A DNA stretch of 64,000 bases from an uncultured virus (IMG/VR IMGVR_UViG_3300022861_000081) (IMGVR_UViG_3300022861_000081); one strand, 5' to 3'; positions 16,723 through 64,000 are shown, numbered from the stretch's first letter. Notes: generated by a model from the letters alone, not told the origin. Translations and numbers: made by a program.

Positions 16723-16995
16723 ATGGAAAATGAGAACAAAGAAAAACCGATCATCGTCGATCTTGGCCAACGCGAAGACGTGCCTCGTCCTGAACTCGAT
16801 CCACAAAAGCTATTGTCTTTTGCGCAGCAAATCCTGATGGTTTTAGTCTTTTTAATGTTTCTGGCTTGCGGGGTTTTATTGCGTTGGCCCGGATCAAAAG
16901 AAGCTCAAACCATCTTTGAACAAGCAAGAACGATTCTCCCGCCAATGGTGACGCTTGTTCTTGGCTTTTACTTTGGCGGTCGTCATTCTCGATAA
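16723..16995 (+). CDS. Small two-TM membrane protein
   Basis: Two hydrophobic stretches, ending LVLGFYFG; AT-rich moron-like context. Confidence 0.6.
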   Translation: MENENKEKPIIVDLGQREDVPRPELDPQKLLSFAQQILMVLVFLMFLACGVLLRWPGSKEAQTIFEQARTILPPMVTLVLGFYFGGRHSR

Positions 16996-17093
16996 TTTTT
17001 CAGAACAGGAATAGCCTGTATGTCTTGTTCATGCGGGCTATTCTTTATCACTATTCAGAAATTTTCAGGGCAAAAAAGCTGAGCATGGCTAAT

Positions 17094-17702
17094 GTTGCGT
17101 CTATTCGGCGCACTGTAGAAGCTGTTTGATTGTTGCGCTTATCCAGCGCACTATGACTATCTTGCAACCTTTTTATAGCCAAAAAGCCGTGATGATTCTC
17201 GTGTTGCATCTACTCGATGCACTGAAACTGCCTTGTGACTTTGTGCTATTCCTTGACGCGTTGCGCTTTCTCGGCGCACTCATACGTCTATAAATATCCC
17301 TTGTGTATTATTGCGCTTATTCAGTGTATTGTTGCGCTTATCCAGCGCACTCCTACTTTGTCGCACATGTTGCATCTCTCCGATGCACTTTGACTGTACA
17401 CCCCTACCTATCCATGTTGCATCTGCTCGATGCACTCATACTGTGCTCCTCAACCTATCCATGTTGCGCCTATGCGGTGCACTGAAACCGCATTACTGCG
17501 AAATCCAAGGCTCACGTACGTTGCATCTTCTCGATGCACTTCAACCAGTCTGCTATACAGCAGACAAAAACGAATGCCAATGGAGGTTGCATCTGTTCGA
17601 TGCACTCATACGGATTTGGTACGGGATGCTGTTGTTGCGCTTATCCAGCGCACTAGAACATCTTGTCAGCTCATTCTTCAGGTTGCGCCTGCTCGACGCA
17701 CT
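17094..17702 (-). CRISPR. CRISPR array 1: 13 degenerate/minimised repeat units
   Basis: Core GTTGCRYY-N5-RRYGCACT at 17094, 17132, 17203, 17260, 17310, 17331, 17369, 17416, 17463, 17520, 17586, 17634 and 17682; period 21-71 nt; minus-strand TTGACA at 17741-17746. Confidence 0.8.
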
Positions 17703-17755
17703 CATATGACACCTCAATACTTTGCGCCAAGCCCCCGCGTTGTCAACAAATTTCT

Positions 17756-18283
17756 TTAGCTCCGCGATGCCAGAATTTTGGTTGCCTCAGTCAATGTAAT
17801 CATAAGCGTTTGTGGATTGATCGGCGAAGCGATGAAGCCGTATTTCTCGTAGAACTGTTTTGCATCCTTAGAAATTGCATTTACCAAAACCGCACGAATG
17901 CCGGCAATCTCAGCAGCCTGCAAAGTGCGCAAAACCGCATCCCGCAAAAGATCCGCCCCAATCCCGCGATGCTGAAAGTGTTCATCCACAGCCAGTCGTC
18001 CGATCAGCATCACGGGCACTGGATCGGGCATGTTGCGCTTGATGCGTGTGGGTGCCTCGACATGTGCCACAGCACCAGTCGCCAGCGCATAAAAACCAAC
18101 GACATGACCTTCTGAGCACACCACTTTAGTACGCGATGCTCCATTCTTCTCGTTTTGAAGTGCCCGCGTCTTCAACCACAGATTGAGAGATGATTCGCCA
18201 CAGCAGAATTGCGTAAGATCATGTTCCACTGTCAGCTTTTCTGGAGCGGTAATACGGATCTTGGACGCCTCTACTCCTCCCAC
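17756..18283 (-). CDS. GNAT-family acetyltransferase toxin (AtaT/TacT-like)
   Basis: FCCGESSLNLWLK, VVGFYAL, NMPDPVPVMLIGRLAVD..QHRGIG, FYEKYGF; next to a DUF1778-like gene. Confidence 0.9.
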   Translation of the reverse strand: MGGVEASKIRITAPEKLTVEHDLTQFCCGESSLNLWLKTRALQNEKNGASRTKVVCSEGHVVGFYALATGAVAHVEAPTRIKRNMPDPVPVMLIGRLAVDEHFQHRGIGADLLRDAVLRTLQAAEIAGIRAVLVNAISKDAKQFYEKYGFIASPINPQTLMITLTEATKILASRS

Positions 18284-18555
18284 GATGGTTTCCTCGCTAG
18301 CAGCTTTGCCAGTTTTGGGTTGGACTTGGGAGGATTGTCTAGCATGTCATTGAAGCGTTGGAACTCTTCTTTCCCGAGACGGAAGTAGCAGCGATCAAGC
18401 AAAATCGCTTCCGCTTCCCTGCACGCCGCATCCAGCATGAAATCCGTGCGGTTCCTTCCCAGCACTTCTGCTGCACTATCAATTAATGTCTTTTGCCGCA
18501 GATTGGCACGCAAATTGATGTTCGTAGCCCGCAATTCAGCAACGACAGAACCCAT
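18271..18555 (-). CDS. DUF1778-family antitoxin (TacA/AtaR-like)
   Basis: INLRA..QKTLIDSAAEVLGRNRTDFMLDAACREAE..LDNPP..NPKLAKLL. Confidence 0.9.
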   Translation of the reverse strand: MGSVVAELRATNINLRANLRQKTLIDSAAEVLGRNRTDFMLDAACREAEAILLDRCYFRLGKEEFQRFNDMLDNPPKSNPKLAKLLARKPSWEE

Positions 18556-18617
18556 GACCCACCTCCTGAATGTATACACAATGAGCGTACAGCATCGTGC
18601 GCACAATGTAAAGCGCC

Positions 18618-18899
18618 TTAGTACAGCTTGCGGCAGTCATAACACCAGAACCCGTCAGGCCGCTGGAAACCCTTGTGCCCCTTGTCGTGTGGGCATCTGG
18701 CAAGGCCAGCAGGACTCGAATCCGCGACAGGCCGATTATGAGTCGGTTGCTCTACCGGCTGAGCTACAGTCCCGCTGTTCCACTTCCGCGTGCGACACTC
18801 GGGATTACGGCATTGCGCGGGTATCGGTTTACGAACGTCTACCGGCCAAAGATACCCACACACGTCGCATCGATATGCCTCCATCTTAGTTTTGCCCAT
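18618..18899 (-). CDS. Zn-ribbon protein containing an in-frame tRNA-like sequence
   Basis: CDVCG..CRNPECRTRKWN and CPH..CYDC motifs; N-terminal part paralogous to 41382-41576. Confidence 0.65.
   Translation of the reverse strand: MGKTKMEAYRCDVCGYLWPVDVRKPIPAQCRNPECRTRKWNSGTVAQPVEQPTHNRPVADSSPAGLARCPHDKGHKGFQRPDGFWCYDCRKLY
18698..18773 (-). tRNA. tRNA(CAT)-like (Met/Ile2), degenerate acceptor and T stems
   Basis: 76 nt: GGGACTGTAGCTCAGCCGGTAGAGCAACCGACTCATAATCGGCCTGTCGCGGATTCGAGTCCTGCTGGCCTTGCCA. Confidence 0.6.
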
Positions 18900-31556: not shown

Positions 31557-31768
31557 ACATGCAGATCATCTTGCGGCAACTCGACAGCGACGACTTTGGA
31601 AAGATGCTGAAAGTCTGCAAAAGCTCACGCGAACGGTTTTACCTGGAAGCCGCGCGCATTAATCCAAACTTTGAATACCACATCGATCTGCCCGGCCCCG
31701 ATGGCCCTACCAAACCCGTCGACATGCAAACGTGGCTTGCCGACAAAGAAAGGTTCCCCGACGACTGA
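31553..31768 (+). CDS. Hypothetical protein
   Basis: ATGA-coupled to the previous gene. Confidence 0.5.
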   Translation: MNMQIILRQLDSDDFGKMLKVCKSSRERFYLEAARINPNFEYHIDLPGPDGPTKPVDMQTWLADKERFPDD

Positions 31769-31796
31769 GCAAAATGATGGCACAATGGGAGGTCAA

Positions 31797-32504
31797 ATGA
31801 CGGAAAAAGTACACTTTCGCAAGGATCTGACAGGCAAAGTCTTTGGTCGGCTTACTGTAACGGGATACTCGCATCAAGCCGGAAAGTCATCGGTTTGGAA
31901 CTGCCTTTGCGTCTGCGGAAATACGACTCAAGTTCGCCAAAGCAATCTTACGAGGGGCGGCGTTGTTTCCTGTGGTTGCCGCAGAAAAGAAATTCAAAAT
32001 CACATCAAGTTCTATTCTCCAGAATCTGCTCTTACGCATGGCTGCGCTCGCACACGGTTAGGAAAAAGGACTGCTGTCTATACGATATGGTGTGGGATGA
32101 AACGGCGTTGTTCTTCACCAAAATGCAAATGCTTTTCGTACTACGGCGGACGTGGAATCAAAGTCTGCAAACGATGGGAAAAGTTTGAAAACTTCCTGGC
32201 GGATATGGGTAAGCCAAAACCGGGAATGACACTTGACCGCTTTCCGGATAAAGACGGCGATTATGAACCGACAAATTGCCGATGGGCTACATGGAAAGAG
32301 CAGGCAAACAATCAACGCCCCCGTTCATTTTTCATTGACAAGCCTGAACATGCTGACATTTTGCAGAAAATCTTATCGCTGCACTCTTTGGGCAAAACTA
32401 CCAGAGATATTGCAGACGTGCTGAATTCTATGAAAATTATGTCACCCCGTGGAAAATGCTGGTGGGGATCAGGCATTGATCGTATCTTGCGCAATCATCG
32501 ATAG
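31797..32504 (+). CDS. HNH-type endonuclease with C-terminal recombinase-like DNA-binding domain
   Basis: DLTGKVFGRLTV, WNCLCVCG, SCGC, YGGRGIKVC, TLDR..GDYEPTNCRWAT. Confidence 0.8.
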   Translation: MTEKVHFRKDLTGKVFGRLTVTGYSHQAGKSSVWNCLCVCGNTTQVRQSNLTRGGVVSCGCRRKEIQNHIKFYSPESALTHGCARTRLGKRTAVYTIWCGMKRRCSSPKCKCFSYYGGRGIKVCKRWEKFENFLADMGKPKPGMTLDRFPDKDGDYEPTNCRWATWKEQANNQRPRSFFIDKPEHADILQKILSLHSLGKTTRDIADVLNSMKIMSPRGKCWWGSGIDRILRNHR

Positions 32505-32511
32505 GAGAAAA

Positions 32512-33192
32512 ATGGAAGCTGTTTCATATATGCGGTGTTCTGGCGAAAGCCAAGTTCTCGGCGATACGTGGGAACGTCAGCGCGCAGTTATCGTTAAATA
32601 TGCCGCCGCCAATGAAATTGCAATTGTCGATGAATTCCGGGATGAAGGCGTAACAGGCAAGATGGAGTTGGAAGGACGTGCCGGTCTTTCAGCCTGCATA
32701 CAATTCATCCGTGAAAAGGGAATCAAGCTTGTTTTGGTTGAGTCCAGCGACAGATTGGCCCGCGACATGATCGTGGCAGAAGTTGTTGTACGCGAGTTTC
32801 AAAAGATTGGAGTTCGCGTCATTTCTGCGTCTGGCGGTATCGATCTAACCGAGGGAGACGATTCCAACCCCACGGCTAAACTAATTCGTCAGATTCTAGC
32901 GGCCGTCGCCGAGTTTGATCGCTGCGTAATCGTACTTAAGCTACGCGGTGCGCGCCAGCGCAAGAAGGCTAGAGGAGAACGTGGAGACGGCCGGCACGCC
33001 TTTGGAGAAAAACCTGGAGAAGCCATAGTCCTCGCACAGATTCGTGCGTTAAAGGCCCAAGGAGAGACGACCCGGGCCATTGCCGGCGCCTTGAACGCCA
33101 CCGCCATTCCCACGCGCATGGGGGGCACCTGGAAGGCCGGGACGGTGGCAAAGATCCTTGCTCGTGAGAAATTTCACAGCGCTTGCGCGTGA
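32512..33192 (+). CDS. Serine recombinase (resolvase family) with recombinase DNA-binding domain
   Basis: YMRCS (catalytic Ser), DEGVTG, SDRLARD, AVAEFDR. Confidence 0.9.
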   Translation: MEAVSYMRCSGESQVLGDTWERQRAVIVKYAAANEIAIVDEFRDEGVTGKMELEGRAGLSACIQFIREKGIKLVLVESSDRLARDMIVAEVVVREFQKIGVRVISASGGIDLTEGDDSNPTAKLIRQILAAVAEFDRCVIVLKLRGARQRKKARGERGDGRHAFGEKPGEAIVLAQIRALKAQGETTRAIAGALNATAIPTRMGGTWKAGTVAKILAREKFHSACA

Positions 33193-33255: not shown

Positions 33256-34703
33256 GTTGCATCTATGCGATGCACTTCAACTGCATTGCTACCGATGAGG
33301 TAGCGCTGTCGCTACGGATTTCGCGTTGCACTTATCCAGTGCACTTCAACTGCATTACTACGCTGGTGGGTCCTTGTAAGTTGCATCTGTTCGATGCACT
33401 CAAACTACATTGCGACTCGATCAACTGCTCGACTTCGGGTAACGTGACCTCGTTGCATCTACGCGATGCACTCAAACTGCTTTGATGCTTGCTATCTTTT
33501 GGCACATTTCCATTTTTCCAGTAGTTGCATCTATGCGATGCACTGAGACTATTTTGCGACACGGAGTTGAATCAAGAAGCAATAAGCCTGTTGCATCTAT
33601 GCGATGCACTTTGACTGCTTTGCTATCCCACTAATAAGCCTTTGCAGGATCATTTTCCCAGTTGCATCTGCTCGATGCACTTTAACTACCTTGCGACCAT
33701 GTGAGAATGCTGGTGGCTCTCTCTTGACGAAGTTGCATCTGCTCGATGCACTCAAACTACATTGCGACACGGCTACGGAAGCCGTCTTGCTGCTGCTATG
33801 AATGTTGCATCTGTTCGATGCACTTTAACTACCTTGCGACGACTGTTTATGCTTTTGAACTCACACACTACGACCGTTGCATCTGTTCGATGCACTGAAA
33901 CTACATTGCGACAGCAGAAAAAATCGAGAAATGATTCCGATACCATGTTGCATCTGCTCGATGCACTGAAACTACCTTGCGACGAAACCTGGAAAACCTG
34001 TCCACCGGGACCGTAATAGTTGCATCTGCTCGATGCACTAAAACTATCTTGCGACGTTCGACTTCAGCCAAGAGAGACATGACCGCGAGTGTTGCATCTG
34101 TTCGATGCACTTAAACTATCTTGCGACCCTATAATTTGTCCAGACACTAGCGTCCACAACCGTTGCATCTGTTCGATGCACTGAAACTGCCTTGCGACGC
34201 ATGTACTCCCAAAGCGTGTACTCTTGATGCAAGTTGCATCTGTTCGATGCACTGAAACTACATTGCGGCTTGGTGAGCCCTTGGAAAGTGTTAGCAGGTC
34301 ATCAAGGTTGCATCTGTTCAATGCACTGAAACTATCTTGCGGCATGATCGAGCAGTTGAGCAATACAAGGTGCGATACGCGTTGCATCTGTTCGATGCAC
34401 TTTAACTACCTTGCGACACGAAATTGCGGGACTCTTTTACCAGGTGATGGATGTTGCATCTGTTCGATGCACTGAAACTACATTGCGACCTAAACATCAC
34501 CATGCAGGACAAGCTCGACCTCCAGTTGCATCTGTTCGATGCACTGAAACTACATTGTGACTCGCCACCTTCGGAAGAAACAAGAAGACCAGAAGTTGCA
34601 TCTGTTCGATGCACTGAAACTACATTGCGGCGGCCAGCGCCTCCGTGTTGTTGGGGTCCGAGAGCAGTTGCATCTGTTCGATGCACTGAAACTACATTGC
34701 GGC
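33256..34703 (-). CRISPR. CRISPR array 2: 21 repeats, 20 spacers
   Basis: 37-nt repeat, plus-strand consensus GTTGCATCTGTTCGATGCACTGAAACTACATTGCGAC; spacers mostly 32-37 nt, one of 18 nt; repeats most uniform at the right end. Confidence 0.97.
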
Positions 34704-34885
34704 TGCGCTCATTATAACGCTTTGCGATTGAAGAAGATCAAGGACGTTTTTCGCGAACCTCGCAAATCTGCGCTCTTCTAGTTGGGATGCTCGATACAAT
34801 GCCCTCATTATCTCCTTCAAAATCATTTTCTTACGCCTTGCGCGAACCTCCCGCCTTTTTCCGGCCGCTTAGGGTTCGCGGAAAA
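34704..34885 (-). promoter_or_regulatory. CRISPR leader/promoter of array 2
   Basis: Minus-strand TATAAT at 34711-34716; CGCGAACCTC at 34752 and 34841 with inverted GGTTCGCG at 34873. Confidence 0.7.
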
Positions 34886-37988: not shown

Positions 37989-38722
37989 GTTGCATCTATC
38001 CGATGCACTGCAACTGCATTGCTACGATGTCCATCCTAGCCAGTTTCCCATTGTTGGTTGCATCTACGCGATGCACTCAAACTACCTTGCGACCGGAGAC
38101 TACGGTGTTGCCCACCCTGATCTAGTTGTTGCATCTGTTCGATGCACTTAAACTACCTTGCTACCCCACGCCCACGTTGCTTTGAAGCGGTTGCCGTTGT
38201 TGCATCTATCCGATGCACTAAGACTATCTTGCTACACGTTTGCAGATTACCGTTATCGCATCTGGGGCGTTGCATCTATGCGATGCACTTTGACTGCTTT
38301 GTTACCTGGCAGTACACGCATGCGTGACAGTTCGAACAGTTGCATCTACTCGATGCACTTCAACTGCTTTGCTACGAAGCGGATGTGCTATTCGCTGGGT
38401 ATCTTAATGGTTGCATCTACGCGATGCACTCAAACTGCCTTGCGACCAAATGCTGGAATTTGTGAATGCAGCTTTAAAACGTTGCATCTGTTCGATGCAC
38501 TTCAACTACCTTGCGACATTGACCGAAGGTCAAGCAACTCATGCTAAGTACGTTGCATCTACTCGATGCACTGAAACTACCTTGCGACCAGCGAGACAGG
38601 TTCATCACTGGCGAGTCGTTGAAGTTGCATCTACGCGATGCACTCAAACTACATTGCGACCAGTATTTCGACCGCATGAATCGCTTTGCCATGGTTGCAT
38701 CTGCTCGATGCACTTCAACTAC
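37989..38722 (-). CRISPR. CRISPR array 3: 11 repeats, 10 spacers
   Basis: Same repeat family, with almost every repeat a different variant; spacers 31-35 nt; rightmost repeat truncated to 29 nt and abutting a GC hairpin at 38723-38751. Confidence 0.95.
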
Positions 38723-38757
38723 TGGGAGTGCACCCGAGGGGTACACTCCCACTTTGT

Positions 38758-41381: not shown

Positions 41382-41576
41382 TTAACTTTTCGGAGGTTTC
41401 ACTTGTGTCTGTTCCGGTTTTACACGTGGCCACGTCCGCCGATCTTCTCCCCCAGAATTCCAACGCCAACTTCTGCATTTGCGATTCCAGCATCGCTCAG
41501 GCAAAGGCTTTGCCTTGTCATACACTTCCTTCGCCCCGCAAACATCACACACCAAAATATCGCCATTGGTAATCAT
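41382..41576 (-). CDS. Small Zn-ribbon protein
   Basis: CDVCG..LPERCWNRKCRSWRWN. Confidence 0.65.
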   Translation of the reverse strand: MITNGDILVCDVCGAKEVYDKAKPLPERCWNRKCRSWRWNSGGEDRRTWPRVKPEQTQVKPPKS

Positions 41577-41670
41577 TTCATCACTTTACCCAATTGAGCA
41601 TTTTTTTGCCAACCATTCAGGAACGTTTGGCCTAAATATCAGGTACAATGTCCCCACAAGGAGGATACAG

Positions 41671-42288
41671 ATGCGTGTTGCAATTTACAGTTGCACCCCC
41701 ATAAAGGATGATCCACACATCGCCGAAAACCAGATTCAGCGCATGGAAGAGATGGTACTGCGCTATGGCTGGAGAACGACACACATCTACCGCGATCTAG
41801 TCACCTCCCCGGGCGCGGATCGCGATGCTTACAAGAAGATGCTGCTGGACGCGAAACAGCATCATTTTGATGCGCTCATCTTCTGGACGCTCAACCAGCT
41901 CACTCGTCAAAATGCCAACAATACCATATTGCTTCTGCACAAACTCTCTTGTTGGAATGTCGGATTCTGTTCTTATACAGAGCGGCACCTGGATTCCTGC
42001 CACACCTCAAGGGAGACAGTGTTCGCGATTATCGCCCTACTGGTTGAGCAAAACAGCGTTTACATCGGAGAAAAAACGCGCATTGGCATTGAGAAACAAC
42101 AGCAGATGCATACACCAGGCCCCAACGGACGATTCGGCCCCGGCAGGCCTCCGGCCGTCTTTGACCAAGAAAGGGCTCAGGAGCTTCGCGCAAGAGGGAA
42201 GTCGTATACCACCATCGCCACCGTTTGCGGCGTTTCAAAGGCAACGATTTCCAGGTACTTTAAAGAAGCGAGGGAACACTCAGTTTAG
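41671..42288 (+). CDS. Resolvase-family protein, catalytic motifs degenerate, with C-terminal HTH
   Basis: AAGGAGG RBS; MRVAIYSCT in place of YxRVS; NQLTR in place of DRLxR; GRP..IATVCGVSKATISRY. Confidence 0.75.
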   Translation: MRVAIYSCTPIKDDPHIAENQIQRMEEMVLRYGWRTTHIYRDLVTSPGADRDAYKKMLLDAKQHHFDALIFWTLNQLTRQNANNTILLLHKLSCWNVGFCSYTERHLDSCHTSRETVFAIIALLVEQNSVYIGEKTRIGIEKQQQMHTPGPNGRFGPGRPPAVFDQERAQELRARGKSYTTIATVCGVSKATISRYFKEAREHSV

Positions 42289-47242: not shown

Positions 47243-48051
47243 GCCGCTTCCTCGCTCGCGCTGCCTTCCCCGCAGCAAACCTTTAAAATCTCGCCCATTT
47301 CTTGGATGTGCGCCGCAAATAACGTGCGCAGCGCTTCCAGCTCTTCCACGCTGTGCGCTTCCGTCACCGCGCGCGTCAACCGTGGAATCGACTCGGCCAT
47401 GAAGCCCACCAGCGTCGGCTTGTCGTGGTATTCGGCAATCATCAGCTCCAGCGCGTAGCCAGGGTCGTCGATGCCGTGCTCATGCTGCCATTCTTCAAGA
47501 CCACTCTCGATGAACTCGCGTTGCGACTGTCTCACACTCCATTTCACCGAGGTGTTTCTGTCTTTGGGCGGCGTATTCTCGGCCAAAGACACATACTTTC
47601 CTACTTCGCTTTGGAACTCTCGCGCCTGCATGGTGGCGGCTGCATTCAGCAAAGCAGGGTCCGCGCGCATCGTAGATGGTGCCTTCGCCAATTCCTCTGC
47701 GTTCTCAATCGACATCGAAAGGAATTGCTCTTTGCTGAGCATCTGTAACCGTTCCGCCAAATCCACCATCATGTACCAGGTTGAGCGGCCAATGCCTTTG
47801 CTGGCGCGGTAGCTCTTTTCGTCCGGATAGCCCAACCGCTCCCAGCCGTTGTAGCGTTTGATGAAGTAGCCCTCCCAGCCAATCAGCATTGACCGCTTGT
47901 TCAGCGCTACCCACGATTCGGTAATTGCTCGATCACTCTCGTGAAGCCGTTCATCGAGGCTTTTCACCGGAGCAATCCCATCTGTATTCACGAGCATCAG
48001 AGCGTGCTCGTTCGCTTGAAACGCTTCTGTACCCATGCCGATTCTCCTCAA
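47239..48051 (-). CDS. Hypothetical protein
   Basis: 270-aa ORF coupled in the operon. Confidence 0.55.
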   Translation of the reverse strand: MRRIGMGTEAFQANEHALMLVNTDGIAPVKSLDERLHESDRAITESWVALNKRSMLIGWEGYFIKRYNGWERLGYPDEKSYRASKGIGRSTWYMMVDLAERLQMLSKEQFLSMSIENAEELAKAPSTMRADPALLNAAATMQAREFQSEVGKYVSLAENTPPKDRNTSVKWSVRQSQREFIESGLEEWQHEHGIDDPGYALELMIAEYHDKPTLVGFMAESIPRLTRAVTEAHSVEELEALRTLFAAHIQEMGEILKVCCGEGSASEEAA

Positions 48052-61679: not shown

Positions 61680-62961
61680 GTTGCATCTATTCGATGCACT
61701 AAAACCGCATTGCTACGGTGGAATGTCCACTTCTTCGTCAGACGTATACAGTTGCATCTATCCGATGCACTAAAACTGCGTTGCTACAATAATCTCCCAA
61801 TGGAGTGGGAACCCGACTATGTTGCACTTGTCCAGTGCACTAAAACTTCGTTGCTACTGTGCATGTTGACAAAAAAGGCAAACTTAAGTGGTTGCACTTG
61901 TCCAGTGCACTAAAACTGCGTTGCTACGCCCAATGTCTCCGATGATGCTCTCTGGACGAACGGGTTGCACCTGTCCAGTGCACTAAAACTTCGTTGCTAC
62001 GAGGTGCCGAGATGGGCAAAGACAACATTTATGTGGTTGCATCTATCCGATGCACTAAAACTTCGTTGCTGCGTAAAGCCGTGAAATTTACCTCGCATAT
62101 CTGGATGTTGCACTTGTCCAGTGCACTAAAACTACGTTGCTACGCCGGGTCCAGCAGGAGCACGTTATCTGTGGGCGGTTGCACTTGTCCAGTGCACTGA
62201 AACTACGTTGCTACGAGACACCCTGCACTTCATCGCAAAATTCGATGGGTTGCACTTATCCAGTGCACTAAAACTGCGTTGCTACGCGTAGTTTCATTCG
62301 AGGAGCGTACATTGTCATAGTTGCACTTGTCCAGTGCACTGAAACCGCGTTACTACTTCAGCGTGTTGCACTTGTCCAGTGCACTAAAACTGCATTACTG
62401 CGTGACAAAGCGTCAATAAAGCGCCGATTCCGAAGGTTGCACTTGTCCAGTGCACTCAAACTGCGTTGCTACAATGCCCCTCGGCTTGCCGTTTCGACGG
62501 CACTGGCGTTGCACTTGTCCAGTGCACTAAAACCGCGTTACTACACTATCGGCCAAGAGATAAGGGCGACCCAAGCAAGTTGCACTTGTCCAGCGCACTA
62601 AAACCGCATTACTACGAATCATTCATAAATTCATAGACTGCGATAAAGCGTTGCACTTGTCCAGTGCACTCAAACTGCGTTACTACTTTTGGACGAGATG
62701 GATGCAGCTGTAGGAGGAAACGTTGCACTTGTCCAGCGCACTTTAACTGCGTTGCTACTTGCTACAGTTCATACACTTGTGCGGAAGATTGGTGTTGCAC
62801 TTATCCAGTGCACTTAAACCGCGTTGCTACTTGGTTCCGTATTTTTCAAGTGCGTTGCATCTACTCGATGCACTAAAACCACGTTGCTACCTGCGCTTAA
62901 GCTCGTTACAGGCTCTGAGTTTGTGTTGCATCTGCTCGATGCACTTTGACTACGCTGGTGC
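61680..62961 (-). CRISPR. CRISPR array 4: 19 repeats, 18 spacers, adjacent to the effector
   Basis: Dominant variant GTTGCACTTGTCCAGTGCACTAAAACTGCGTTGCTAC; spacers mostly 33-36 nt, one of 8 nt and one of 23 nt; minus-strand extended -10 TGCTATAAT at 62982-62990. Confidence 0.97.
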
Positions 62962-63063: not shown

Positions 63064-64000
63064 TCAAAGATCGTCTGTGCCGCTTTCGTCACCTTCCAGC
63101 GACTGCGTGTCTTCTTCTTCGTCTTCAAATCCCGGCGTCTGTGCGTCTTCTTCAGATTCGTCTTCATTTCCCAGCGCCAGCTTTGCCAGCTTGGGATCGC
63201 AGGCAAAGCGCGACAGATTTACCGCAGCGTTGTAATCCTGGTCAATCAGCCTTCCACATGCTTCACACTGGAAGCGATCCTTTTCCGTCGATGGATTCAG
63301 ATGATTGCAATATGAGCACATGCGCGTTGTGTTCATTGCCTCATACGGCTCAGTCACAATTCCGTATTTCACGGCAGTGTACTTGAGCAGAGAGATGAAG
63401 CGGCCAACAGCAGCAAATTGCCGGTATTTCTGCGAGCGCTTCAAGCTTACGGGATCGGTGTTCTCCTGGTGGACCGCAATTTTGGCCAGAAAGTTCTTTT
63501 CCAGGATCAACCGTGTAATGCTCTTTTTCTTCAGGTAGCTGCAAACATCATGGGCGACTTGCAGCTGGTTGTATTCAATACGCGCGCTGACTTTTTTGCT
63601 GTATGCGGCCGCAAGAGTCCCAATTTGTTCCTCGTTTTTTCCCCACGCATTCAGGATGCTCTGCACATCAACATCGTCTTTGAATTCCTCCTTGAGCCGC
63701 AGCAATCCACTACGACCGGCTTTCTCCAGCCATGCAGGCGTGTTTTCCCCAAGTTGCTTGCGCAGCGCAATCTTGGCCGTATCTTTGAAGTAGTCACGGC
63801 GAGTCTGCAACGCGGTTCTGATCTCCAACGCGTTGGGGATTCCATCTCCCGGCTTCCAATCAGGGAATAGCCGCGTGATATTGCGTTTTTCCCAGCGTGT
63901 GGGTCCCATATCGATGCGGAATGGCACACGATCTTTGTGATCTTTGGGCGATTTCTCAAAGTCCATCACAAGCTCGCGCACTGTCCAGCTCGTTGGCTCA
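63064..64000 (-). CDS. TnpB/Cas12-like RuvC effector (type V candidate), 5' end outside the window
   Basis: Frame is open to the window edge; RuvC-II-like LILE, Zn finger TTRMCSYC..FQCEACG, RuvC-III DQDYNAAVNL; 100 bp upstream of array 4 on the same strand. Confidence 0.85.
   Translation of the reverse strand, partial: EPTSWTVRELVMDFEKSPKDHKDRVPFRIDMGPTRWEKRNITRLFPDWKPGDGIPNALEIRTALQTRRDYFKDTAKIALRKQLGENTPAWLEKAGRSGLLRLKEEFKDDVDVQSILNAWGKNEEQIGTLAAAYSKKVSARIEYNQLQVAHDVCSYLKKKSITRLILEKNFLAKIAVHQENTDPVSLKRSQKYRQFAAVGRFISLLKYTAVKYGIVTEPYEAMNTTRMCSYCNHLNPSTEKDRFQCEACGRLIDQDYNAAVNLSRFACDPKLAKLALGNEDESEEDAQTPGFEDEEEDTQSLEGDESGTDDL

Follow-up and report, generated by a model that had tools for sequence, protein, structure and literature searches.

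The window, i.e., the whole stretch of 64,000 nucleotides analyzed here, showed a phage-like gene content, with an integrase, RecT, a Rha/ANT antirepressor, a primase-helicase, a GH108 lysin, serine recombinases, and a DNA methylase. It belongs to an Acidobacteriaceae phage with a CRISPR system of its own. The elements of this system are the following:

63064..64000, minus strand: cas12 gene, 3' part, truncated at the end of the window and bearing a Cas12f1-like TNB domain
61680..62961, minus strand: regular array A4, 19 repeats, directly downstream of cas12
37989..38730, minus strand: regular array A3, 11 repeats
33256..34703, minus strand: regular array A2, 21 repeats of 37 nt, with a conserved leader motif to its right (34704-34790)
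17094..17702, minus strand: irregular array of 13 hairpin units; the numbering 1-13 runs left to right on plus coordinates

The scan for a degenerate hairpin pattern gave 63 matches across the window, all on the plus strand, against a shuffle expectation of 0.88, and none of 100 shuffles reached 63. These matches were grouped as 12 at 17094-17701, 21 at 33256-34686, 11 at 37989-38713, and 19 at 61680-62944; a degenerate unit at 17310 was caught only with a looser regular expression and brought the irregular array to 13 units. In the regular arrays, the 37-nt repeat is composed, on plus coordinates, of a 21-nt hairpin and a 16-nt tail, the spacers are mostly 33-35 nt long, and the periods are mostly 70-72 nt. 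This agrees with a preliminary description of this DNA, which had given the other arrays a period of about 71 nt.

Transcription of the arrays is most likely on the minus strand. This reading is based on the strand of the cas12 gene beside A4, the position of the leader to the right of A2, the A2 spacer second from the right end, which is the only one in this array private to the window, the non-Watson-Crick stem pairs of the window's regular arrays, 4/4 of which are G.U on the minus strand, and the truncated tails of the right-most repeats of A3 and A4. Viewed on this strand, each repeat ends 3' in its hairpin and the spacer follows directly, which is the arrangement of Cas12 crRNAs with a 5' handle. 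The A2 leader motif was also found beside the arrays in L026, L081, and L095. Arrays with the same hairpin were present in Acidobacteriaceae, namely in the chromosome of Telmatobacter bradus DSM 23630, a Terracidiphilus MAG, and bog MAGs, and about 17 single hairpin matches in other phyla were, by our own estimate, at the chance level for an 18-base pattern in that collection. One spacer from L095, an array of an Acidobacteriales MAG, matched the window at 47271-47303 in 30/33 positions; this was the sole clear protospacer, and it shows that this phage is targeted by arrays of the family.

Next, we analyzed the irregular array. Each of its units is a copy of the hairpin at the 3' end of the 37-nt repeat in the three regular arrays, in the same orientation as these; read on the minus strand, the array starts with unit 13. 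The 13 units with a 21-nt hairpin and the periods of 38, 71, 57, 50, 21, 38, 47, 47, 57, 66, 48, and 48 nt reported in the preliminary description were reproduced exactly by the pattern scan plus the looser expression. It had also been stated that most units lost the 16-nt tail of the repeat, and we scored the tails with a weight matrix generated from 49 regular tails, where regular tails score at least 12. Units 2, 3, and 9 contained a clear tail, with scores of 10.1, 19.9, and 16.5, respectively, units 10 and 11 were borderline (p 0.002-0.004), and the remaining 8 of the 13 units had lost it. The statement thus stands for most units but not for the whole tail: the first 5 nt, ending in AC, were kept in 10/13 irregular units (p 5e-11, the AC frequency in the window being 0.054) and in 51/51 regular units. 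Since these nucleotides are mostly kept, the retained core is 26 nt long, not 21.

The sequence left before the next hairpin was also measured. After the 26-nt core, units 7, 8, 11, 12, and 4 leave 21, 21, 22, 22, and 24 nt, respectively, and units 1 and 6 leave 12 nt each; after the full repeat, units 3, 9, 10, and 2 leave 20, 20, 29, and 34 nt, and there is nothing left in unit 5. Therefore, units 1, 5, and 6 have no usable spacer. The resemblance to pre-trimmed mature crRNAs proposed in the preliminary description holds for the five units with 21-24 nt after the core and for guide X, described below, with 27 nt versus 33-36 nt elsewhere, but the units with 12 nt or none are too short to guide. 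Two tandem duplications were detected in the array:

17303..17345, minus strand: 21-nt tandem duplication, origin of the degenerate unit 5 (TRF period 21, 2.0 copies)
17366..17467, minus strand: 47-nt tandem duplication covering units 7 and 8 plus the beginning of unit 9 (TRF period 47, 2.2 copies, 83% matches)

The first of these is missing from the relative L203, and in the second, the first 10 nt beside the hairpin are identical in units 7 and 8. When compared with a canonical CRISPR array, the 21-nt hairpin was observed in 13/13 units, and the full 37-nt repeat was clear in three and borderline in two. Near-constant unique spacers were not found, with periods of 21-71 nt and units 7 and 8 being tandem copies, and the irregular array lacked the leader motif that A2 and the arrays in L026, L081, and L095 have on their right. 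The differences between lineages were unit duplications and deletions, not leader-side addition of spacers. A cas effector is present in the same genome, on the same strand, beside A4, an array with the same hairpin. The Rfam models showed no match to CRISPR direct repeats, a tRNA being the sole match in the window at the gathering score. A coding sequence within the array was considered and rejected: the internal open reading frames had no Pfam match and the unit periods were not multiples of three.

To compare the stems, 30 distinct hairpins from the irregular arrays of the window, L132, L134, and L119 were read on the minus strand; 96.1% of the cells paired, and 31 carried two-sided changes. 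The covariation score was 0.449 against 0.266 in shuffles, none of 500 shuffles reached it, and all the slid controls were far lower. Mutations spread evenly through the stems, named in the preliminary description as an observation that would speak against a guide array, were thus not seen, as pairing came with compensatory changes. This covariation may come from inherited working arrays or from palindrome template switching, so it need not reflect selection here. Some mismatched stems on the minus strand had been noted before, and these were located in units 1, 4, 5, and 9, as A.C pairs; this is 4/13, versus 0/51 in the regular arrays (p 0.001). Across lineages, disrupted hairpins were found in 6/30 distinct irregular and 4/38 distinct regular hairpins (p 0.32). 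The wobble pairs showed no strand bias across lineages, with 8 minus-compatible and 7 plus-compatible, and although 5/6 non-Watson-Crick pairs of the irregular array in the window would be G.U on the plus strand, this number was not significant. At the fourth pair, G-C instead of A-U, i.e., G at position 6, was present in 23/65 irregular-unit contexts and in 2/168 regular ones (p 1e-12), counts that take in near-duplicate, related loci.

Then, we searched for the locus in relatives, as the preliminary description had recommended. The array was 100% identical in 3 of the 15 related virus records (G001, G003, and G005). A metagenome scan with the end of guide X joined to the hairpin as the query retrieved 47 stretches, and hairpins were contained in 14, the other 33 resembling chance matches. 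The 14 stretches included four copies with the window architecture, five diverged irregular arrays (L129, L132, L134, L138, and L142), two short arrays (L135 and L166), and three stretches from regular arrays of another lineage (L133 and L140; L145). The diverged irregular arrays occupy the same place as in the window, with a left flank 86-93% identical and a tRNA-side flank about 84% identical (L132, L134, and L142), confirming that the locus is conserved in diverged relatives. Some of their units are common with the window, at 76-90% identity, and others were gained or lost; the orthologous units of the window and L132, with this same identity, are no better conserved than the coding flanks. 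A second scan, with guide Y joined to the hairpin, gave three further lineages, L203, L206, and L217, with 3-5 hairpins within 785-819 bases each. Units of 37-40 nt were found in L033 and L015 as well. Most of these relatives are fragments of 0.8-2.4 kb.

Two of the guides recurred beyond the window lineage:

17607..17633, minus strand: guide X, 27 nt between hairpins 11 and 12, no repeat tail; the hairpin-proximal 17 nt are 17617-17633
17240..17259, minus strand: guide Y, 20-nt spacer flanked by the full repeat of unit 3 and by hairpin 4, in a 57-nt unit

Guide X was found in five contexts: the window/L132 lineage, L135, the regular arrays L140 and L145, and the Telmatobacter chromosome (L119). 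The mean pairwise identity among these was 0.976 at positions 1-17 from the hairpin and 0.520 at positions 18-27. X is a spacer of 33-36 nt preceded by a full repeat in L140, L145, and Telmatobacter; the version in the window and L135 directly joins the preceding hairpin and measures 27-28 nt. The hairpin attached to X in L145 is unlike the other hairpins listed for that array, suggesting that hairpin and X move together. For guide Y, the first 10 nt beside the hairpin were identical in six versions (window, L132, L203, L206, L217, and L119), and the architecture of its 57-nt unit is shared by the window, L132, L203, L206, and L217. The Telmatobacter element has two hairpins, lies among gene fragments, and bears spacers of regular length (about 36 nt) that match Y and X of the window on the hairpin-proximal side. 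When both guides were compared between the window and Telmatobacter, 1/27 proximal and 8/20 distal positions differed (p 0.0026). The Telmatobacter element was found independently, with the whole array as the query, and the other X contexts were found by scanning for X itself, so the recurrence is real but is not an unbiased measure of conservation. In the neighboring gene 16723-16995, 21/91 third codon positions (23%) differed when the window was compared with L132; with this as the reference, X differed at 0/27 positions (p 0.0009) and the TTGACA flank described below at 4/53 (p 0.003). Collectively, the conservation of these two guides suggests, from sequence comparison, that the array may hold hard-wired guides rather than being the product of plain decay.

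The region upstream of the array, on the minus strand, contains the following:

17703..17755, minus strand: array upstream flank, with a perfect TTGACA at 17746-17741
17756..18606, minus strand: toxin-antitoxin pair directly upstream of the array, GNAT acetyltransferase (17756-18283) and TacA-like antitoxin (18271-18606)

The TTGACA pointing into the array was already part of the preliminary description and is indeed present; it has a weak -10, and the site was absent from the promoter-scan output. The flank that contains it is conserved at 49/53 positions in the L132 lineage. In that lineage, the toxin-antitoxin pair, including the GNAT gene, is missing from this place, and rearrangement between two hairpin copies has affected the segments on the right side of the array. 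An acetyltransferase is known as an anti-CRISPR. A role of the GNAT protein as an anti-Cas12 acetyltransferase was set aside here, since its matches are to acetyltransferases of the toxin type and its partner is a TacA-like antitoxin. The GNAT protein search gave near-identical phages only.

Metatranscriptome contigs from two studies matched the array with 0-2 differences: X16 covered 17063-17389, X15 covered 17300-17625 in pieces, and X18 covered 17071-17266 and 17661-17916, the latter bridging the GNAT gene into the array. These contigs are strandless, carry neither ends nor expression level, and may be carried-over DNA; the flanking genes had an RNA-library depth similar to that of the array. 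In RNA run X17, there were just hairpin-sized pieces joined to spacers of other arrays.

The full Cas12 protein, of 770 aa (P0001), was taken from L014, an identical viral contig. Its sequence matches were confined to the RuvC/zinc-ribbon end of TnpB/Cas12 families, and the best PADLOC models were Cas12f and Cas12u1, with E about 6e-23. We found 111 relatives (clusters at 90% identity) with 37-94% identity, none of them with a Cas name in the source and two labelled Terracidiphilus. In 27 aligned sequences, the RuvC acidic triad was D/E in 27/27, E in 27/27, and D in 26/27. The AlphaFold model of P0001 had a pLDDT of 82 and a pTM of 0.67, and the fold search with this model returned Cas12m structures as the top four, with E of 2e-21 to 3e-17 and a TM-score of 0.52-0.62 on the target; the best match was Cas12m2 (8hhl, E 2e-21), and Cas12f came next, with 1e-12. 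According to the predicted structure, the effector fold is closest to Cas12m, the DNA-binding type. Cas12m, as described in PMC11013384, uses a crRNA of about 50 nt, about 30 nt of it derived from the repeat, is free of tracrRNA, and binds DNA but does not cut it; the same text reports that variants with a D-E-D triad are likewise non-cutting and silence through binding. The effector search in the Telmatobacter genome gave no match.

The preliminary description had advised a search of the sequence beside each hairpin against host and phage promoters. Our target searches in phage, host, plasmid, and virus collections gave none. With up to three mismatches, the X 17-mer was found only in the array itself when the window, L014, and 10 related virus records were searched. 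In 401 Acidobacteriaceae genomes, there was no exact match, and 13 genomes had a one-mismatch match, which, by our reading, is at or below the level of the reversed-pattern control. In the virus collection, the only exact match outside an array was in a 4-kb contig with a repetitive open reading frame and was judged to be chance. The GenBank phages and plasmids contained no match for the array region, and X gave only hits with E of 5-8. The 18-mer of the guide beside hairpin 11 was found in arrays only in the virus collection, the 10-nt guide of units 7 and 8 joined to the hairpin was found in the window lineage only, plus two chance matches, and the spacers of the irregular array had no match in the locus stretches from relatives. 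Seeds of at least 10 nt from the 12 guides were not found in the window, G001, or L014, except for one 10-mer expected by chance; self-targeting or autoregulation was thus rejected. We also considered the capture of a host gene, since the minus strand of unit 8 matched a conserved DHOD-like host gene with 92% identity over 35 nt (E 6.5e-6 per genome), and the control search with array A3 showed no non-array match above 40 bits. This candidate was set aside because the homologous tail in L132 differs and an unrelated gene that encodes the same short peptide matches too.

The explanation that we tentatively prefer is that this is a compacted, non-acquiring array at the size of mature crRNAs that still supplies some fixed guides. 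It is based on the anatomy of the array, its homology to the regular repeat, its conservation and turnover in relatives, the hairpin-proximal conservation of X and Y, and the Cas12m-like fold of the effector model, all of which were observed. The array would be a side array of the phage's own type V, Cas12m-like system, evolutionarily maintained and unable to acquire spacers. It would have originated from a regular array by deletion of the parts that crRNA maturation discards, i.e., the repeat's 5' portion and the distal spacer end, and, by a second route, by tandem duplication of whole units, with each unit keeping the crRNA handle of the 21-nt hairpin plus 5 nt. We infer that minus-strand transcription would start from the conserved TTGACA flank or come from read-through of the toxin-antitoxin pair, and that the transcript would be processed so that the units leaving at least 20 nt after the handle (X, Y, and about seven others) yield ready-sized crRNAs of about 47-50 nt. 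These compact crRNAs would load the phage Cas12, and the complex would bind a conserved target and probably silence it. By-products would come from the units in which 12 nt or nothing follows the core. What is kept (hairpin plus 5 nt, proximal spacer, and upstream flank) and what is lost (the rest of the tail and the far spacer end) agree with crRNA function having been under selection in part of the array. The preliminary description had ascribed silencing to the short length of the guides, a point that we do not share: 20-27 nt is not short for Cas12, and silencing would follow from the Cas12m-like effector, not from guide length. The more specific proposal, that this leaderless array of 26-nt handles and guides of about 21 nt, with the ancient guides X and Y and a Cas12m-like binder, is a hard-wired silencer of a conserved host, plasmid, or rival-phage gene, is doubtful.

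A decaying remnant, in which the leader was lost, acquisition ceased, and no guides are made, is a serious alternative and comes closest to this explanation, although we regard it as somewhat less likely. Here, pieces would be deleted and duplicated by slippage and recombination between hairpins, and the apparent conservation would be shared ancestry over little time. The irregular spacer lengths, the three units with no usable spacer, the two tandem duplications, the stems mismatched in the window versus none in the regular arrays, the turnover of units between lineages, and the lack of both a leader motif and a strong promoter all agree with decay, as do the lack of a target in phage, host, plasmid, and virus collections and the Telmatobacter copy, which lies among gene fragments in a genome with no effector match. 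Nevertheless, remnants would not be expected to diverge far from the hairpin and not beside it, as X and Y did in the comparison with Telmatobacter, nor to leave X unchanged at 27/27 positions while third codon positions changed. In addition, the architecture of the 57-nt Y unit was kept in at least five lineages, and the irregular hairpins were disrupted no more than the regular ones across lineages. Simple decay, offered as a caveat in the preliminary description, may account for part of the array.

Two other explanations leave the guides aside. In one, handle-only RNAs act as decoys, a kind of RNA anti-CRISPR, that occupy the Cas12 of a rival phage or host with the same repeat family, the G-C stem being the adapted form. 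The excess of G at position 6 in the irregular contexts, the occurrence of the hairpin in chromosomal arrays of Acidobacteriaceae, and the rival spacer that matches this phage at 30/33 positions, and thus aims the system at it, are compatible with such a role, and phage repeat-only RNAs that inhibit Cas proteins are reported in PMC11656645. Even so, we consider it improbable: decoys would compete with the phage's own three arrays, which have the same handle, unless they were variant-specific, they leave the proximal conservation of X and Y unexplained, and the stem-type count includes near-duplicate loci. As this phage encodes an effector itself and its regular arrays share the hairpin, the decoy against a host Cas complex suggested in the preliminary description is not needed. 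In the other, the hairpins have a non-guide role, either as a DNA recombination hot spot that shuffles cargo, e.g., the toxin-antitoxin pair, or as a plus-strand transcript antisense to crRNA handles. This is the least probable of the explanations, despite the rearranged segments and absent GNAT gene in L132 and the 5/6 window pairs that would be G.U on the plus strand; the latter was not significant and found no support in the wobble pairs across lineages, and the sole plus-strand promoter-like site precedes a terminator-like hairpin. Plus-strand expression was rejected because the window's excess of plus-compatible wobbles, 5 versus 1, vanished across lineages.

Finally, we compared the array with the closest known systems. 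CreA, CreR, and tracr-L are examples of regulatory mini-arrays or cr-like RNAs. Like these, as presented in PMC10120712, the irregular array has repeat-like elements outside the main arrays and diverged repeats, and the known cases, for which a partial spacer match suffices, work by effector binding and not cutting, as proposed here, some of them being phage-borne. The known mini-arrays have one or two spacers and match, in part, a promoter that lies within the cas locus or close to it, and the survey found none in most type V-A loci (PMC10120712). Here, in contrast, there are 13 units located 46 kb from cas12, with no match of at least 10 nt in phage DNA beyond chance; in the window, G001, and L014, none of the 12 guides matched a cas-locus promoter or a toxin gene. 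Subtype V-M, found on plasmids and prophages (PMC11013384 and PMC11656645), is comparable in that the effector fold here is closest to Cas12m2 and Cas12m; the 3' repeat hairpin beside the spacer, carriage on mobile elements, and an expected crRNA of about 50 nt are common to both, and no anti-repeat was seen here, as in that subtype. The effector differs in its length, 770 aa versus about 600, and in sequence similarity limited to the RuvC/zinc-ribbon end.

Two phage-borne elements treated in PMC11656645 are also comparable. The Racr units are phage repeat-derived hairpins with little or no spacer. Three units here have no usable spacer, and the same hairpin occurs in Acidobacteriaceae chromosomes; but Racrs are solitary and mimic host repeats, whereas this phage owns an effector, most units have a spacer, and two spacers are conserved (PMC11656645). 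Virus-borne competition mini-arrays are viral arrays with no nearby adaptation module, and rival arrays do target this phage, but the repeats of those mini-arrays are regular, and their full spacers match related viruses (PMC11656645). Here, X had no match outside the array in 10 related virus records. Short-repeat Cas12a arrays are engineered shortened arrays, and V-K transposons have a short crRNA. In PMC10478742, engineered arrays have repeats and spacers trimmed to the needs of the mature guide, as here, except that those are man-made, and the capacity for spacer acquisition is said to keep natural arrays longer than necessary. We found no description of a natural array trimmed in this way, or of this Cas12 clade, in open-access papers and bioRxiv. 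The array is set apart from the closest known systems by its 13 units, handle-trimmed repeats, guides shared across lineages, and lack of a match in its own genome.

Provided that processing and loading of the compact units take place, the array shows what remains once acquisition stops, i.e., a handle and a guide of about 20 nt, the same end point reached in the engineers' shortened arrays. The conservation of guides among phage lineages would indicate that a phage-borne Cas12m-like system has a function that is fixed and inherited, for example silencing or competition, and if the silencer proposal is true, this would be an inherited regulatory program built from CRISPR parts and not adaptive immunity. 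The 17-nt conserved core of X offers a route to the target and the PAM. The effector family is large (111 clusters at 90% identity) and carries no name in its sources, and it is accompanied by unusually variable repeats with compensated stems.

The effector gene of the system, encoding a 770-aa Cas12, lay at one edge of the window, which also contained three regular arrays, A2, A3 and A4, built on the 37-nt repeat:

63064-64000, minus strand: 3' part of the cas12 gene, which is full length in the viral contig L014 (8624-10936)
33256-34703: regular array A2
37989-38730: regular array A3
61680-62961: regular array A4

The family of this protein comprised 111 clusters sharing 37-94% identity, none of which bore a Cas name in the source. 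The predicted structure had Cas12m2 and Cas12m as its nearest folds, but the phage protein is about 170 aa longer than these, and we propose that it may represent a branch of type V, so far undescribed, in phages and prophages of Acidobacteriaceae. Our only clue to the PAM was a hint from one protospacer, whose 5' flank ended in ATCC:

47271-47303, minus strand: protospacer, 30 of 33 positions matching a spacer of the L095 array (Acidobacteriales MAG), with mismatches at guide positions 2, 5 and 20

Near-identical repeats are the norm inside a single CRISPR array; A2, A3 and A4 each displayed unusual internal heterogeneity. Loops and tails differed from unit to unit, and entire stem variants (ATC/GAT and ACT/AGT) alternated, with the pairs compensated. 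Recombinase genes adjoined A2 and A3:

31671-33192 and 41479-42288, plus strand: serine recombinase/resolvase genes

Within the former, recombinase domains were detected in both ORFs, 31671-32504 and 32449-33192, which may be a single broken or frameshifted gene.

In the irregular array of 13 compacted hairpin units, unit 8 and its tail (17416-17451, minus strand) showed 92% identity over 35 nt to a host gene that is conserved and encodes a DHOD-like protein, found at four loci (L099, L103, L107 and L108). This match scored about 9 bits over the top non-array match from the control search with A3, and the likeness is probably due to chance, though this explains it incompletely.

The phage repeat family was also present in the Telmatobacter bradus chromosome (G016):

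1029440-1036655: regular arrays (L081, L195)
about 861635-861740: separate two-hairpin remnant with X and Y, two guides of the irregular array (L119, L194)

No cas gene was found near these regular arrays, and the genome gave no match to the phage Cas12. The remnant was flanked by gene fragments (M16 peptidase and Nramp), and two group II intron reverse transcriptases lay nearby.

Beside the irregular array were the following genes:

17756-18606, minus strand: GNAT acetyltransferase and TacA-like antitoxin pair, directly upstream
18698-18773, minus strand: tRNA-Met (CAT), about 1 kb to the right

The acetyltransferase was similar to toxin-type enzymes (top PDB match E 2.5e-47; matches included KacT), its partner was TacA-like (Pfam TacA1, E 2.9e-24), and one RNA-library contig spanned the GNAT gene into the first unit of the array. 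The tRNA-Met gene belonged to a block common to the window and its relatives, and the surrounding flank was about 84% identical in the diverged L132 lineage.
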